From a phage, in sequence record PX441839.1: 64,000 nt of DNA; one strand, given 5' to 3'. The position numbers were made by a program, and so were the translations under genes. Under the pieces are notes generated by a model. The model ran no database searches, had not been told where the DNA came from, and was given only the letters and a program-made list of their open reading frames with translations. Positions 43,929-50,406 of the stretch are shown piece by piece (positions within the stretch are counted from its first letter, which is position 1; every line of letters starts with the position of its first letter).

Positions 43929-44228
43929 TCAGTGACATTGCCCCCAATTAAGTCCTGTCAGATACTCACCTGTGATATGTACAGGTGCCTTCATCATCTT
44001 AGCTGCTTGTTCAACGCAACGAACAACCATTTCACCGACAGGGCAGTAGATGATAGTGAATATTCCATTCTCATCGGGGTCGCACTTAAACTTACCTTCC
44101 TTGACACAATGACCATCCAGAACCATACGCTTCTTGAGGCAATCCTCAACAAAAGCTTTTGCTTCGACTTCATTGTCAAACTTCCATTCCTTCTTGAACT
44201 TATTTGGAACTTCAAGCTGGTATTCATC
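43929..44228 (-). CDS. DNA polymerase family A, exon 2 (C-terminal end)
   Basis: Begins at DEYQLEVP (second half of the Pol A motif C, HDE...E.P) and ends ...TGLNWGQCH, like the Pol I C-terminus; the leading Met of the track ORF is probably intron-derived. Confidence 0.6.
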   Translation of the reverse strand, partial: DEYQLEVPNKFKKEWKFDNEVEAKAFVEDCLKKRMVLDGHCVKEGKFKCDPDENGIFTIIYCPVGEMVVRCVEQAAKMMKAPVHITGEYLTGLNWGQCH

Positions 44229-44998
44229 CAAAGTTTAGCAGGTTCGTTAATCCTGCCCACACCATTACGTGTTGCCATACGGTTTCCCGTAGGATCGGAC
44301 TATATCACCACCCTTTTCAGGGTGCTCCCCATTTCGACGCCACTTGGTCGCCTACGCCTCTCGGCTAGTCTCTGAACGTTAAGACCACGTATACTTCTCG
44401 GAAATATGCTTCCACTGCCGACGCTGCTTAATGGCTCGTACTGTTGCATAGGGGAATCCCATGTCGCGTACCTCTGCCTGGCTCATTCCGCTTTCAAGAA
44501 GCTGGCAAATGGTCATCACTTCGTCTTCTGTGAGGGCACTATTAGCATTGTTGATACCTTCCGCGCTGCGACAGTTGTGGCGATAGGCGTTCTCTATGTT
44601 TTTGCCTCTCGTAACCCACTGTAGGTTGTCTTTGTGGTTATTCCTTTTATCGGGCCACTTGTGATCAACCTCTGGAAGATTGTTCGGATTGGGAACAAAA
44701 CATTCTGCCACCAAAACATGGACCGCCTTTGTCGTCGCCTTTTTGTTAAGGTAAAGACTGACAATTGCATACCCTCTTCCATTATCAACATGCTTCATAG
44801 GTTTACCTCGACGACCTATAATGGTCCCGTCCTCGTAAACTTTATATCCGAAATAGTCTTTGTACTCCACGTAGTCCTCTTCGCTGCTGATTAACATAGC
44901 TGCACTTTAGTTTATTATTAACCCAGTGTCAACCTTAGCCTTCCAGCAATTAAAGGAGTTTTCGATGTAGGTTGCCCTACAAAGCCACAATGTTACTT
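44229..44998 (-). mobile_element. group I-like intron in the DNA polymerase gene, carrying an HNH homing endonuclease ORF
   Basis: About 770 nt separate the exon 1 end (...VRRIIYYH) from exon 2 (DEYQLEVP), splitting motif C. It contains an HNH ORF and an 80-nt core conserved with the second intron. Boundaries approximate. Confidence 0.55.
44379..44897 (-). CDS. HNH homing endonuclease
   Basis: 172 aa; HVLVAECFVPNPNNLPEVDHKWPDKRNNHKDNLQWVTRGKN is an HNH-type motif; lies between the polymerase fragments. Confidence 0.75.
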   Translation of the reverse strand: MLISSEEDYVEYKDYFGYKVYEDGTIIGRRGKPMKHVDNGRGYAIVSLYLNKKATTKAVHVLVAECFVPNPNNLPEVDHKWPDKRNNHKDNLQWVTRGKNIENAYRHNCRSAEGINNANSALTEDEVMTICQLLESGMSQAEVRDMGFPYATVRAIKQRRQWKHISEKYTWS

Positions 44999-47326
44999 AT
45001 GGTAATAGATAATACGACGAACTCCCTCGTCATACCATCCCTTCTTGACCAGTTGCCAGTGAAGCAAGATTCCAACCAGGTCAAATAGTGCTGCACCACC
45101 ATTCTGCTGAAATGCGTTCAACAGGGAGTGCTTTGAACGAGTCCAAATCTTACGCCCATCCAAACCATAGATGAATCTTTTCCCTGTCGCTTCCCAGAAT
45201 TTCTCCAGCGCTTCTTTACGACCTTTTAATCCGATGTTGCTATCCCAGAATGCGTTGATTACATCCTGTGCCTTATCTACTGTGATTCCAAGCATGGATG
45301 CAATCTTGGGTGCCTGAGCGCCGTACATGATTCCATACGTGATACTCTTTCCCTCGCCACGAGAAACCTTCTTCCCCGCTGCCTTTGTGTATGCCTCTGC
45401 GTTTCGGGTGTGGGCGTCCCCCGACTCCATGATTTCAAGGTAAGCGCCACCATCGAACTCATACGCACCCCAAGCCGCAATCATACCTTCCAGGTTAGAA
45501 CCATCAATACCCACTTGGTACTTACCCTTTGGTGCTCGCCAAAGGGAACGCATCTCATAACCAAACAACACCTTCGGATCAGGCTTAGGCATGTTTGCGC
45601 AGATCGTGTGCTTACGACGCCCAGTGTTGGTAATCCCTGAGAACCTTGCTGGTAATCGACCATCAATCTTCAAGCGTGGGTGGTTAAGAAGTCCAGTATC
45701 AACCTTATCCTCTTTCAGTGGATCAAGGACAGATCGTCGGTTACGTGCAGATAACCACTGAACAATGCCTTTAGCCATCGCACCATCCACCTTTTCCAAG
45801 TTTGGGCACAATCCCTGCTGGTCTTTCAACTGAGGGCTTGTTGGCAATGCACGGGCCTTCTTACGGAAGAATTTGAACATCTTCTCCTTGTCTGCCCACT
45901 GCTTAGGGGTAATGTGCAAGTTCTTAAGGATAAGATCACGATATTCTGTCTGATCTAGTTGCTCAATATACTCCCGCACAATTGCATCAACTTCACCATC
46001 CGGACGTTGCTTTTTAAACTGGTCCTTTGTTGCATCCTTTGTACGCCAAATTGTTGGAATCCAACCCGCATCTCGGATGAGGAACTTCTTAACATCATCC
46101 TGGTTACCGATACGCATCGGAATCATTATATCTGGCATGGTCTTATTCTTCAAGTCCGCCAAAGCCCGTGCCATATCCTCTGGAGGTAGTGGCTCCAGTG
46201 TGGATTGTTTTTCGTTCTGACTACGAATGAACTGAGGCATTTGATCCTCATCTTCCACCCCGTGGTCATTACAGTATTTAATAGCCGCAGCCGTAAGTGA
46301 ACCATCTGCCTTAAATGCTTTAGCCGGAGGCCCCTTGAAATCAAGGGCTTCCCAATTAATATTGTATCCTAACTTCTCCAGCCATTTCCAACCTGTGCCG
46401 GACAATGTCCCGTCACCCTTGAAAGGTTTGGATGGGAAAGTTGGTTGTGCGGATTTAGCCATCTCTTTCTTCGGAAGCTGAGGCTCAACCTCTTCCTCAA
46501 TCTTCTTCATGAAGGCATCAACCGTATCGCGGAGTTTCAGCGCCGCCTCTATGTCAAAATCAACACCTTGGATTTCTTGCTCAATCATCAGGTAATCGGT
46601 AAGCATACCTCGACGAAGAGAGTCTTTCCAGTTGATCATTTTATATTTTGTTGGGACACGCTCATCTTTAAACATGAAGCGTTTATCATCTGGGTACGCA
46701 TCGCAGGTGATTTCCTTCATAAGGGCGTCCCACACCTTTTCGTTGATGATAACGTCCTCAATGATACGGTCACAATACTTCCACAACGGGAGTCCACGCC
46801 AATCATCAATGGCGACTTTCAGGTTGGCTACTCTCATACCCCATGCTTCCAGACCATGAGGGCCAACAGGTTTCATCTTTCCTGTGACAGGGTTTTTAAC
46901 CATTTCTGGGCAACCCTTCGGCAATGGGCGGTCAGGGTAGAGTGTACGAGACATAGACAAGGAGTCAAACAGGTTAACCTGTTTTCCATTGATCGTTCCC
47001 ATGCACTTAGGATCGGCAAACATATCGTATTGTGTACCGAACAGCTTCTTGAACAGACGTAAGTCATATCCAAACAAGTTGTGAATAACAATGCTACTAG
47101 GGACTTCTGTGAACCATCTATTAAGGTCAGAGAAGTTCATTACATGCAGATTGAATCCCTTCGCATTAACGAAGTTCAAAGCCTCTTGATAACCCTCTCG
47201 CGCTGGGTCCATGAAGAGATACCAGTTATCCTTTTTGTACTCCTTGAAGAGGATGCAGTGAGCATGTAAGTTCTCCTCGTCAAGTAAACCAGATGCTTCC
47301 GCATCACCTACCCATAAACCTTTCAT
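44999..47326 (-). CDS. DNA polymerase family A, exon 1 (3-5 exonuclease and polymerase domains through the start of motif C)
   Basis: Motif A-like DGSNLEGM (D.S..E), motif B-like KSITYGIMYGA (K...YG..YG), N-terminal exonuclease-like region; ORF ends abruptly at ...VRRIIYYH-K-stop inside motif C. Confidence 0.8.
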
Positions 47327-47371: not shown

Positions 47372-47401
47372 CATAAAAGATCAAGCCCAGCTTTCACTGG
47401 G
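47372..47401 (-). terminator. putative terminator after the 47410 gene
   Basis: Minus-strand GCCCAG-tgaaag-CTGGGC hairpin followed by a T-rich run. Confidence 0.4.
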
Positions 47402-47409
47402 CTTCTGTA

Positions 47410-47745
47410 TTAAGGTACAACCTGCATATGGTTAGAATCGCAACCATCGTACCAGTGGTCAAAGAAAATCTTCACTGTGTCATCCCAGGCGAAAACATTC
47501 GCACGTTTTAACTCCTCGTTGAACTCCTTAATAAGTTCATGTGGATTGAAGGATTCAAAAGAGAAATCATAGCTCTCTTCATCACGTTTGATAAAAAGAA
47601 TCATGTTCCCATCGTAGTTCAATTTCAGGTTCGATTCAATTTCTTCCAGCCACTCTTGCAGGTCGATATGCTCAGAATTTTCATAGCCACCTACCGGAAT
47701 AGCCATCTCTGCCATCACGCCGAAAGTTATACGTTGATTACTCAT
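47410..47745 (-). CDS. hypothetical protein
   Basis: 111-aa ORF. Confidence 0.45.
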   Translation of the reverse strand: MSNQRITFGVMAEMAIPVGGYENSEHIDLQEWLEEIESNLKLNYDGNMILFIKRDEESYDFSFESFNPHELIKEFNEELKRANVFAWDDTVKIFFDHWYDGCDSNHMQVVP

Positions 47746-48005
47746 TTCTTATTTCCTCCCCAAATTTCAAAAGATGGTTCCCAGCACAAAGAGATCTTAC
47801 AAGAATAGATCAGTTTGTTGTCCTCATCGTACAGTTCACAATTAACATCACCCTCCTTCCAACTTTCCCAACCATCGTGGTAATCTCGATAATCAGCAGC
47901 GGCCTGTTGAGCAATTGATTCCAGATCCCATTCATCCTCTAAGTCAAAAATGGTCATATCTGGAGCGAAGGTGTACTCGTAACCTTGAATAACATACTTA
48001 ATCAT
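47742..48005 (-). CDS. hypothetical protein
   Basis: 87-aa ORF, ATGA-type overlap. Confidence 0.45.
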   Translation of the reverse strand: MIKYVIQGYEYTFAPDMTIFDLEDEWDLESIAQQAAADYRDYHDGWESWKEGDVNCELYDEDNKLIYSCKISLCWEPSFEIWGGNKK

Positions 48006-48271
48006 TAATACTCTCCTCTCAGAAGGCCATCTTTGTCAGGGAAGGTGGCACCATCACCACCTTCAAACATTCCGTCCAGGTCTGCGATTACAAGAGCACC
48101 CTGCTCACCTGACTGAACAAACCGTAGAGATCCTGAATAAGAACCACCACCAAAAATTTGGATACCTAGGGCCTGAGCTTGTCGCCCGTAACGGGACAGA
48201 CCTTTTGCAATACGCTCAACTTCTTTTGGATCTAAACCTGCTGCTTCACACTCATCAACATTCGCGTACAT
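48005..48271 (-). CDS. hypothetical protein
   Basis: 88-aa ORF. Confidence 0.45.
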   Translation of the reverse strand: MYANVDECEAAGLDPKEVERIAKGLSRYGRQAQALGIQIFGGGSYSGSLRFVQSGEQGALVIADLDGMFEGGDGATFPDKDGLLRGEY

Positions 48272-48639
48272 TATTTCTCCAGATATTCCAAGCGAGGGTA
48301 TTTTTTACCTGCGTAGGTTTCGACATTACCACACTTGTTACAGGTATGTGGGTACTTTATCGGGCTGGACAGAAGTGCATCTCCACGAGACTCCATTTCC
48401 CCACCGCATTCGCAATACATGTGGATAAAGTAAGGTTTTGCCTCTACTCGCCGTTCACCCTTTGTCGGCTTAGGATCTGTGGCCCTCATGTTCCATTGTT
48501 CTTGGAGATAATCAAATCCGTGTTCTGTTCTTTTCTGACAGCCGCAGTTCCCACATTCGGCAACGTACCGATCAGAGTACCTTTTCTCCTCATATGTGTA
48601 TGCTTCACTCCCGCAGAACGGACAAGGTTTAAAGTTCAT
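48271..48639 (-). CDS. Lar-family-like zinc-ribbon protein (possible restriction alleviation)
   Basis: N-terminal KPCPFCGSEA...CGNCGCQ...EQWNMR matches the Lar-family pattern recalled from the E. coli Rac prophage Lar; a second Cys cluster lies C-terminally. Confidence 0.5.
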   Translation of the reverse strand: MNFKPCPFCGSEAYTYEEKRYSDRYVAECGNCGCQKRTEHGFDYLQEQWNMRATDPKPTKGERRVEAKPYFIHMYCECGGEMESRGDALLSSPIKYPHTCNKCGNVETYAGKKYPRLEYLEK

Positions 48640-49081
48640 TATCGACCTCCAGACTTAACTCAACCATAGCTTTCTGCCCTGTTGCGCCATAATAAAAAAC
48701 TTGGAAACTGTCGAAAGTGTAATAAATATCCCACATATCAGGATCTGTAGGCCAGCACTCGATCAATTTACCGCTGTCCCATTCATCCCCTACCCACTCA
48801 TCATAACCCTCAACATTTTTGTAGTGCTTGCTCCCACTTTTCCCATTCGGGTATTCTGCCAAGCAACGTAAGAGGAAATTAACAAAACGTTTAAGGTCCT
48901 TTTCCCCTTCAAATACAAACACTTCATTTTTGTAACCGTCTGCATCACCAATCATCCAGCGAGCTTCAACCGTGTAGACATTGAAGTGTTCCAGAGGGAC
49001 AAGTCCGGTAATGTTAAGATCTTTGACCTTGTAGGTTTTTGTGTCTCGAAACTCTTGAGTTACAAACGTTTTCTTTATCAT
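48629..49081 (-). CDS. hypothetical protein
   Basis: 150-aa ORF. Confidence 0.45.
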   Translation of the reverse strand: MIKKTFVTQEFRDTKTYKVKDLNITGLVPLEHFNVYTVEARWMIGDADGYKNEVFVFEGEKDLKRFVNFLLRCLAEYPNGKSGSKHYKNVEGYDEWVGDEWDSGKLIECWPTDPDMWDIYYTFDSFQVFYYGATGQKAMVELSLEVDNEL

Positions 49082-49090
49082 AGTGTTTCC

Positions 49091-49804
49091 TTATTGGTTG
49101 TGTAGGAAAACTGCCTTTGCCAAACCCCTTGGGGTAAGGGAGCGTATCAGTTTTGTACGTGCCGATTTACCACCTAACTTATTATGCTGCTCAGAATATC
49201 CCTGTGCGACACCGACAGGCGACTTCACTGGCATCTTGAACCCTTTCCCCGTCCAAAGGCATGTCTTCTTAGGATAAGCGTCACGAGCCTTAATGTACTC
49301 AGGGAAAAATGGATTCACATCATCCTCCGGTAAGTAACCACCATACTCATATGGGTGGAACTGGTAGTCAGATTTTCTCCATTTTGTTGCCAAAACACTT
49401 ACAGGGTTTTCTATCATGTAAGGGCAGTCGAAAACAAACTCTGCCAAGTATGCCGGAATTTTTGCAGTACGTACAGCATTTATTTGGAAAAATGGATCTT
49501 TTGCTGCTTTTCTTTTAAAGTGGGCTGCACCGCTCACCGCCATATCTGTGCAGGGAGGGAAGGCAAAGATAATATCTGGGTTTGGGATTCCCAAACTTTC
49601 AACATTCTCTGCCCACTCCATGTCAATCCACGCATCCACATACGTCACGTTCGGGTGATTAACTCTTACATTATCATACAATCCGTGGTCAGCCTCCTTA
49701 GCGTTGAAGCAGAAGCACAGGTGACCAGCTTTTGCCCAATCAAAGACCATTGCCCCAGATCCATCAAACAAAGACCAAACAACCTTTTTAGACATGCTTT
49801 TCAA
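49091..49804 (-). CDS. putative DNA (cytosine-5) methyltransferase-like protein
   Basis: Ordered motifs SLFDGSGA (motif I, F.G.G), FPPCTD (motif IV, PC) and IENPV (motif VI, ENV); short (237 aa) for a complete C5-MTase. Confidence 0.45.
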   Translation of the reverse strand: MKSMSKKVVWSLFDGSGAMVFDWAKAGHLCFCFNAKEADHGLYDNVRVNHPNVTYVDAWIDMEWAENVESLGIPNPDIIFAFPPCTDMAVSGAAHFKRKAAKDPFFQINAVRTAKIPAYLAEFVFDCPYMIENPVSVLATKWRKSDYQFHPYEYGGYLPEDDVNPFFPEYIKARDAYPKKTCLWTGKGFKMPVKSPVGVAQGYSEQHNKLGGKSARTKLIRSLTPRGLAKAVFLHNQ

Positions 49805-50165
49805 ACCCCAAGGTGGTTACCAATTGCTCGTAATCCCAAGTATCCAGGTATGCTTTCTCTCCATGTTTGGCAAAACCTCGCCACTTATTGGTTCGATACA
49901 GGAACCAAAGTTGTTTCGCAACATTCTTATCATCAACATACCCCAGCAGAAATGCCCAACGGTGGGTTGGAATGAGGCCAACAGCAATACGATTAAGTTC
50001 GTCCCATTGGTTTGTTTTCACATTAAAAACCCAAAGTCGTTTCCTGATCACCTCTTTACTTTTCAGGAGGTCACGTAAATGTTCTGCACGTTTAATCATT
50101 GTGTCGTGTACATTCGCGGCACGGATCAGTGTGTTTTTGTTAACTTCGATCAAGGTGTTACTCAT
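49788..50165 (-). CDS. hypothetical protein
   Basis: Start set at internal Met (MSNTLIEV). Confidence 0.45.
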   Translation of the reverse strand: MSNTLIEVNKNTLIRAANVHDTMIKRAEHLRDLLKSKEVIRKRLWVFNVKTNQWDELNRIAVGLIPTHRWAFLLGYVDDKNVAKQLWFLYRTNKWRGFAKHGEKAYLDTWDYEQLVTTLGFEKHV

Positions 50166-50406
50166 GTTCTTCCTCCTCCGCAATCTCACCAATGGCAACA
50201 AACTGATCATGGTCAAGAGATACCCATGCACCAAGGATTCCGTTGTGTACCCAGAAGGTGAACATGTCACCGCTTTCGTCTACGGCGCAGTAATTTACAC
50301 CATCTTCGTCCTCGTATTCATTAATTACTTCAAGGAAGGACCCTACCCGTAAGACATTACTTAACGTTACCTTTATTTTCACCTTTGCCTCCAAAATCAT
50401 GTTCAA
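50158..50406 (-). CDS. hypothetical protein
   Basis: 82-aa acidic ORF. Confidence 0.4.
   Translation of the reverse strand: MNMILEAKVKIKVTLSNVLRVGSFLEVINEYEDEDGVNYCAVDESGDMFTFWVHNGILGAWVSLDHDQFVAIGEIAEEEEHE

Follow-up and report, generated by a model that had tools for sequence, protein, structure and literature searches.

The window analysed here is a stretch of 64,000 nucleotides of phage DNA (sequence record PX441839.1), and the element of interest is a locus on its minus strand, 48271-49804, where the list of open reading frames (ORFs) and direct reading of the letters give three tightly packed ORFs. A preliminary description of this interval named two of them, a Lar-like ORF and a methylase-like ORF. 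Direct reading confirms both, each on the minus strand, while the gene that lies between them was absent from that description. The three genes are as follows:

49091-49795, minus strand: predicted compact phage 'Dcm-like' C5-cytosine methyltransferase, 234 amino acids (a start at the TTG at 49804 would give 237)
48629-49081, minus strand: middle gene, encoding a 150-residue protein (PHROG 8562, E = 2.1e-22, unknown function)
48271-48639, minus strand: Lar-like two-domain zinc-ribbon protein, 122 amino acids

The methylase gene and the middle gene are 9 bases apart, the 3' end of the middle gene overlaps the start codon of the Lar-like gene by 11 nucleotides, and the Lar-like gene in turn overlaps the next gene by TAATG. 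The trio is located between a DNA polymerase gene (boundary 47326) and a region that leads, in Salmonella phage SSBI34 (141 kb, Vequintavirinae), to a DnaB-type primase/helicase. Over the stretch 47400-50300 the DNA is 83% identical to that of SSBI34, the sole phage record that matches at this stringency; by this relationship the source is a tailed, Vequintavirinae-like phage related to SSBI34. We hold with moderate confidence that the locus provides two independent anti-restriction candidates, a compact Dcm-like cytosine-5 methyltransferase and a Lar/RalR-type fused zinc ribbon, within a three-gene trio. The methylase and the Lar-like gene each belong, as ordinary members, to phage families already known, and there is no categorically new element in the locus.

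The predicted compact methyltransferase and its family

The probable start of the methylase is the ATG at 49795, which overlaps the stop codon of the upstream ORF (ATGTCTAA). This ATG is likelier than the TTG at 49804 because the homologues align from it and because of the overlap with the upstream stop; the size of 237 residues first given for the protein is therefore correct for the ORF opened from TTG, while the protein itself is likely to have 234. Its main features are:

49754-49768, minus strand: motif I, FDGSG (residues 10-14), the loop that binds S-adenosylmethionine (SAM); F10, G12 and S13 are invariant in 36 homologues
49550-49558, minus strand: motif IV, PPC (residues 80-82), with the catalytic Cys82; invariant in the 36 homologues and present in 120 of the 120 best homologues
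49403-49411, minus strand: motif VI, ENP (residues 129-131); invariant in the 36 homologues and present in 120 of the 120 best homologues
49175-49246, minus strand: short variable segment, residues ~184-207, ...MPVKSPVGVAQGYSEQHNKL; the most variable stretch of the family alignments

Motifs I, IV and VI can be read directly in the order in which they had been described, and the C5-methyltransferase-like assignment is upheld by their invariance across homologues and by the match to PHROG 757, 'DNA methyltransferase' (E = 4.6e-83, over residues 2-236). The protein is predicted to be a SAM-dependent DNA cytosine-5 methyltransferase that belongs to a compact phage family.

Several sequence comparisons weigh against this assignment. 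The match to PF00145 (E = 4e-4, 20.2-20.3 bits against a gathering score of 22) covers only motifs I-V, and E ≤ 0.01 is reached with this model by only 8 of the 36 family members. The TIGR00675 dcm model gives 12.8 bits against a cut-off of 100.65. A single-sequence search of the PDB sequences with the methylase retrieves only M.HaeIII (E = 0.99), and the profile built from the 36 members has no match at E ≤ 1 among all PDB sequences. Orthology to E. coli Dcm was also considered and was rejected, as the hhalign alignment covers only 25 columns around motif IV, with a probability of 0.4%. E. coli K-12 Dcm (472 residues, CCWGG) has the same chemistry, and the same site is presumed for the phage enzymes in the phage literature, but it is no orthologue of the methylase and is twice its size. 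The name 'Dcm-like' is, on these alignments, a functional label and not a statement of orthology.

Since sequence alone cannot place the family, a fold comparison was needed. The AlphaFold2 model of the methylase has a mean predicted local distance difference test score (pLDDT) of 89 and a predicted template modelling score (pTM) of 0.88, and it has the fold of a C5-methyltransferase catalytic domain, with about 180-190 of the 234 residues aligning to such domains. Identity to the catalytic domains of DNMT3A/DNMT3B and to M.HhaI/M.HaeIII is only 13-18%, and a sequence search with the family profile retrieves none of them. These enzymes, with 285-330 residues, carry between motifs VIII and IX a distinct domain or loop for recognition, whereas the phage protein has no separate target-recognition domain there. 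As the preliminary description held, there is no space for a normal one: only about 25 variable residues lie between strand 7 (KKTCLW, residues 176-181) and the conserved LGGKSxRTKxIRSLTPRG helix region. The model is least confident at residues 201-210, inside this variable segment (mean pLDDT 68 over the block). The segment is the sole candidate for a mini target-recognition element. The protein would act like a C5-methyltransferase even though it departs from the canonical family in two features, the Pfam threshold and the recognition domain.

The absence of the recognition domain is a family trait rather than a truncation, because the 120 best homologues all have 219-259 residues (median 233). 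Judged by these sequences, compactness is the norm in this phage family, which is large, has annotations already and is characterised in part. The methylase was found by tblastn in 1515 phage records, and the family makes up at least 4674 clusters in the protein database. Its carriers include phages of Escherichia, Klebsiella, Salmonella, Shigella, Cronobacter and even Campylobacter, and range from large myoviruses to small siphoviruses; frequent labels in the records are 'DNA methyltransferase' and 'Dcm-like C5 cytosine methyltransferase'. The copy in SSBI34, about 95% identical, is recorded (locus L001, 13676-14386) with a late start as a 219-residue 'hypothetical protein', and the SSBI34 paper makes no mention of a cytosine methylase. 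The practical value of the present assignment is mainly correct annotation, for which this SSBI34 label is an example.

Two relatives have been studied experimentally. The methylase is 54% identical over its full length (E = 2e-87) to a 236-residue protein of phage herni, whose 711-bp gene is 94.8% identical to the 'Dcm-like' gene of phage KarlJaspers (Bas06, Drexlerviridae). K42 is a KarlJaspers strain, and its four escape mutants from retron Ec86 had mutations in or just upstream of the 711-bp dcm gene, or a deletion of it (bioRxiv 10.1101/2023.08.16.553469). Expression of K42 dcm was toxic only when retron Ec86 was present; the enzyme raised 5-methylcytosine (5mC) in the multicopy single-stranded DNA (msDNA), as measured by liquid chromatography-mass spectrometry, and a C82A/E128A/K175A/K176A variant was inert (bioRxiv 10.1101/2023.08.16.553469). 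These four residues have the same numbers in herni and correspond to C82, E129, K176 and K177 in the window's protein, where C82, E129 and K176 are invariant in the 36-homologue alignment. The KarlJaspers/K42 enzyme and the present one are therefore alike in compact family, in length (236 and 234 residues) and in the register of these residues, but they differ in phage family, in genomic context and in the variable loop, which is NPGW there and GYSEQH here. The other relative, the DNA cytosine methyltransferase gp52 of Pantoea phage AAS23 (locus L055), shares 55% identity and falls in the same length class, but is of siphovirus origin and has an NPGW-type loop. AAS23 DNA was reported to be Dcm-methylated on the basis of a restriction digestion panel that included EcoRII, and for gp52 a conserved domain was seen by its authors only by HHpred and not by BLASTP (PMC8004638).

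The Lar-like zinc-ribbon protein

The Lar-like ORF reads NFKPCPFCGSEAYTYEEKRYSDRYVAECGNCGCQKRTEHGFDYLQEQWNMRAT and begins NFKPCPFCGSE...ECGNCGCQ...EQWNMRAT, so that the pattern first noticed in it (KPCPFCG, CGNCG, WNMR) is indeed present in 48271-48639. The Lar zinc ribbon that had been proposed occupies only part of the protein, which has two domains and not one:

48478-48639, minus strand: N-terminal Lar/RalR-type zinc ribbon, residues 1-54 (PF14354, PHROG match, identity to RalR)
48271-48456, minus strand, stop codon included: C-terminal second zinc ribbon, residues ~62-122, CECGGEM...YPHTCNKCGN...YPRLEY (PHROG 9369, E = 8e-10, unknown function)

The Lar-like assignment holds for the first domain, which matches PF14354 (Lar_restr_allev) over residues 2-53 with E = 6.8e-9 and 36.3 bits, above the gathering score of 28.6. 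It also matches PHROG 38103, a 'Lar-like' restriction alleviation protein (E = 2.3e-14), and is 44% identical to RalR/Lar (b1348) of the E. coli K-12 Rac prophage in a pairwise comparison (E = 9e-10), values that put the match far beyond chance. The four Cys residues and the WNxR motif are kept, and both proteins belong to PF14354; the window protein is twice as long as the 64-residue RalR and has the extra zinc-ribbon domain. Together with RalA RNA, RalR makes up a type I toxin-antitoxin system. The functional counterpart of Rac Lar in phage lambda is Ral, which is not known to be related in sequence to Lar. Among folds, the best match of the Lar-like zinc ribbon is Elf1.

The C-terminal ribbon has no match to a Pfam family. 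An exhaustive HMMER search gave 516 representative proteins that match one or other half. The C-terminal half is mostly found in stand-alone proteins of 60-70 residues (P0128-P0150 and others), which form a widespread family with no Pfam model and with the consensus CxCGGEM...TG..L.S.PPQYPH.C..CG...YP...Y.E. The full two-domain arrangement is seen in only two of the 516 representatives, tandem Lar-Lar proteins also occur, and a word-index homologue search gave three matches to the fusion. In the window and in SSBI34 the two ribbons are fused in a single protein, with the Lar ribbon first.

Two comparable phages outside this pair have arrangements of their own. Cronobacter phage CR3 and Pectobacterium phage POP15, both of the genus Certrevirus, resemble the window in belonging to the Vequintavirinae, in having the same polymerase-to-helicase cluster and in carrying Lar 1-2 kb from the methylase. 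In CR3 the methylase (gp067, DNA methyltransferase) and the Lar domain (gp064, Lar-like) are 50% and 47% identical to those of the window; in POP15 the values are 46% and 43%. Unlike the fused protein, the Lar of CR3 is a single-domain protein of 63 residues, and in POP15 the second ribbon is a separate 68-residue gene directly upstream of a 118-residue Lar gene. The presence of the second ribbon beside Lar as separate genes in POP15 hints that the two domains may work jointly.

Proposed functions and rival explanations

By the established mechanism of C5-methyltransferases, Cys82 would attack C6 of the flipped-out cytosine, Glu129 of the ENP motif would protonate N3, and the methyl group would come from SAM held by the FDGSG loop of motif I. 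The site would be recognised by the ~25-residue variable loop together with conserved basic segments (KK176-177 and LGGKSxRTKxIRSLTPRG), with no separate domain. The methylase would then modify replicated phage DNA; the likeliest site is the inner C of CCWGG, which has been reported for the relatives, and such methylation would shield the DNA from methylation-sensitive CCWGG endonucleases, e.g. EcoRII. The cost may be that a methylase of this type can trigger retron Ec86. The 122-residue protein, like Rac Lar, would lessen the restriction that type I (EcoKI-family) systems impose on phage DNA that enters or replicates in unmodified form. Each gene, taken by itself, could plausibly serve in restriction evasion, and the two proteins probably work independently. 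The methylase family is very common in enterobacterial phages and bears on host range in phage therapy, through possible protection from CCWGG-type restriction and through sensitivity to retron Ec86, which senses such enzymes.

The CCWGG target, and the protection derived from it, is the weakest step in this scheme, because the site is based on analogy, because 5mC in msDNA was low, because kinship with Dcm is missing outside motif IV, because the loop differs and because of the result of the BASEL study. The site of K42 Dcm was taken by analogy with E. coli Dcm, the sole support being that defence was lost when the CC of the msDNA was mutated, and msDNA from dcm+ MG1655 with mutant or empty vector had low 5mC (bioRxiv 10.1101/2023.08.16.553469). 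Since dcm+ MG1655 without an active phage enzyme gave low 5mC, the enzyme that methylates CCWGG in the host does not act on msDNA as the phage enzyme does. The AAS23 host may carry a Dcm of its own, so the methylation evidence from that phage is indirect, and in the BASEL study the presence of methyltransferase genes in phages was not linked in any simple way to resistance against restriction. For this methylase family the literature gives no mapped methylation motif beyond the K42 and AAS23 reports; PMC12548924, considered as a source of the family's motif, deals with other methyltransferases. The loop of the present enzyme, GYSEQH, is of the YSxQ (GYSxQH) type, which is found in 106 of the 120 best homologues, whereas both studied relatives are of the NPGW type. 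The doubts about the K42 and AAS23 evidence, the BASEL result and the loop type detract from CCWGG as the site. In the window CCWGG is the most under-represented pentamer (81 observed against 150 expected, z = -5.6), and such depletion would be unexpected if CCWGG were fully protected. The products of deamination, CTWGG and CCWAG, are not enriched in the window. An enzyme that is a real C5-methyltransferase but has a target other than CCWGG, either another or shorter site or single-stranded or hairpin DNA, as set by the short variable loop, would fit the loop type, the unmapped site of K42 Dcm, the different behaviour on msDNA, the depletion and the restriction of sequence kinship with E. coli Dcm to motif IV. 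We regard this as possible but somewhat unlikely: the 54-55% identity to relatives linked to CCWGG extends over the full length, the other conserved surface segments are all common to both loop types, and the depletion follows the phage lineage rather than the loop. Most other loci that carry the methylase do not show it (median observed/expected ratio 0.91), and the ratio is 0.2-0.8 in large Vequintavirinae-like genomes, including 0.35-0.54 in CR3 and POP15, which have a PGW-type loop, and about 0.9-1.0 in small siphoviruses with the YSxQ loop. Ten 6-bp palindromes have zero copies in the window (1-64000) against 7-22 expected, among them CTGCAG (21.7 expected), GGATCC (14.5 expected), AGGCCT, GGTACC, GTCGAC and CAGCTG, and CCGG and CGCG are also low; the missing palindromes and the depletion of CCWGG together show the genome to be under strong restriction pressure.

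Doubts of another kind concern the zinc-ribbon protein and its connection with the methylase. Rac Lar, as cited in PMC4041452, acts in restriction alleviation and modification enhancement (King & Murray 1995), and for the same protein, renamed RalR, a later claim is that it is a toxin with non-specific DNase activity whose partner is RalA RNA (PMC4041452). The NCBIfam Lar model TIGR03655 was narrowly missed (36.8 bits against a cut-off of 39.6), and the RalR equivalog model NF007260 gave 26 bits against a cut-off of 113 (E = 1e-5); these results, with the DNase report, detract from restriction alleviation as the role of the protein. It might instead be a RalR-type DNA-damaging toxin, a host-takeover factor or an accessory of transcription or replication, as the weak RalR match, the resemblance to Elf1 and the fusion to an unrelated second ribbon of unknown function would allow. 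We consider this doubtful, since the equivalog cut-off is far off, the likeness to RalR is limited to a 55-residue metal-binding scaffold, and restriction alleviation is both the family name and, in the work as cited in PMC4041452, the sole genetic phenotype tied to phage biology. Type I restriction alleviation is accordingly favoured over a DNase role, by analogy and with low confidence. A closer union of the genes, in which the three would form one functional unit and the zinc-ribbon protein, perhaps with the 150-residue protein, would supply DNA targeting or regulation to a methylase that has no recognition domain, is very improbable. Zinc ribbons often bind nucleic acids, as the Elf1 match recalls, the start and stop codons of the trio overlap or nearly abut, and a distance of 1-2 kb between methylase and Lar is also seen in CR3 and POP15. 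Gene overlap carries little information, because the whole polymerase-to-helicase region consists of overlapping co-directional genes, and the genes between methylase and Lar differ among the window, CR3 and POP15. In addition, the effects of K42 Dcm were obtained from a plasmid, with retron Ec86 co-expressed and no other phage gene supplied (bioRxiv 10.1101/2023.08.16.553469).

The co-occurrence of the genes was followed in 80 methylase loci of IMG/VR that included 6 kb of flanking DNA on either side, and also in phage herni, 81 loci in all, from other phage groups. Custom hidden Markov models of both domains found a Lar or second-ribbon ORF within 6 kb of the methylase in none of the 81 loci, and neither tblastn nor a Lar regular expression found Lar near the methylase in the IMG/VR loci. 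Pfam searches of the ORFs with CxxC pairs in the IMG/VR loci gave only two sub-threshold generic zinc ribbons (E 0.006-0.015). Apart from the window, methylase and Lar are neighbours only in three phages of the Vequintavirinae, SSBI34, CR3 and POP15. The suggestion in the preliminary description that the two form a restriction-evasion or DNA-modification module finds no support in this result, and their adjacency is best explained, from these gene orders, as lineage synteny, i.e. as gene order inherited in one phage subfamily.

With two independent anti-restriction candidates as the preferred reading, a modest scientific question is how an enzyme of 234 residues recognises its DNA site in the absence of a recognition domain, and whether variants of the loop shift this site. 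The ~25-residue loop (residues 184-207) could be the entire sequence-reading element, in which case the target of the YSxQ type would differ from the CCWGG assumed for the NPGW type; separately, the fusion of Lar with the second ribbon could be a two-headed anti-restriction protein. We think this reading unlikely and offer it tentatively.

The middle gene, genome layout and the DNA polymerase gene

The 150-residue protein encoded by the middle gene has no Pfam or NCBIfam family above threshold; its weak similarity to the SH3 domain of Dda helicase is sub-threshold (E = 0.006). It is 88% identical to an unannotated ORF of SSBI34 (locus L001, 13220-13666), gave one match in the word-index homologue search and has weak relatives in 21 phage records. 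Distant relatives are found in T4-like Aeromonas phages, Bacillus phages and jumbo phages. In the 80 IMG/VR loci, homologues near the methylase were detected by tblastn in only four; elsewhere they occur in unrelated phages.

The polymerase-to-helicase region that contains the trio is a long co-directional block of small overlapping genes and forms a replication-gene cluster. From about 28 kb on, the minus strand carries every gene of the window, as seen from GC skew and the ORFs. The sign of the GC skew flips near 28 kb, being positive over 1-28 kb and negative over 28-64 kb, which is consistent with two blocks of genes in divergent or convergent orientation.

The family A DNA polymerase gene (43929-47326, minus strand) is split at motif C. 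Exon 1, at 44993-47326, ends ...RRIIYYH, and the continuation, DEYQLEV..., is located in the ORF at 43929-44231. Between the two parts lies a group I intron, 44276-45008 (Rfam RF00028, E = 6e-11, 54 bits with a gathering score of 50). The intron contains an ORF of 172 residues at 44379-44897, which has a match to HNH_3 that falls just under threshold (E = 9e-5) and likely encodes a homing endonuclease. The polymerase gene of SSBI34 is uninterrupted, and in POP15 a homing endonuclease gene adjoins the polymerase gene.

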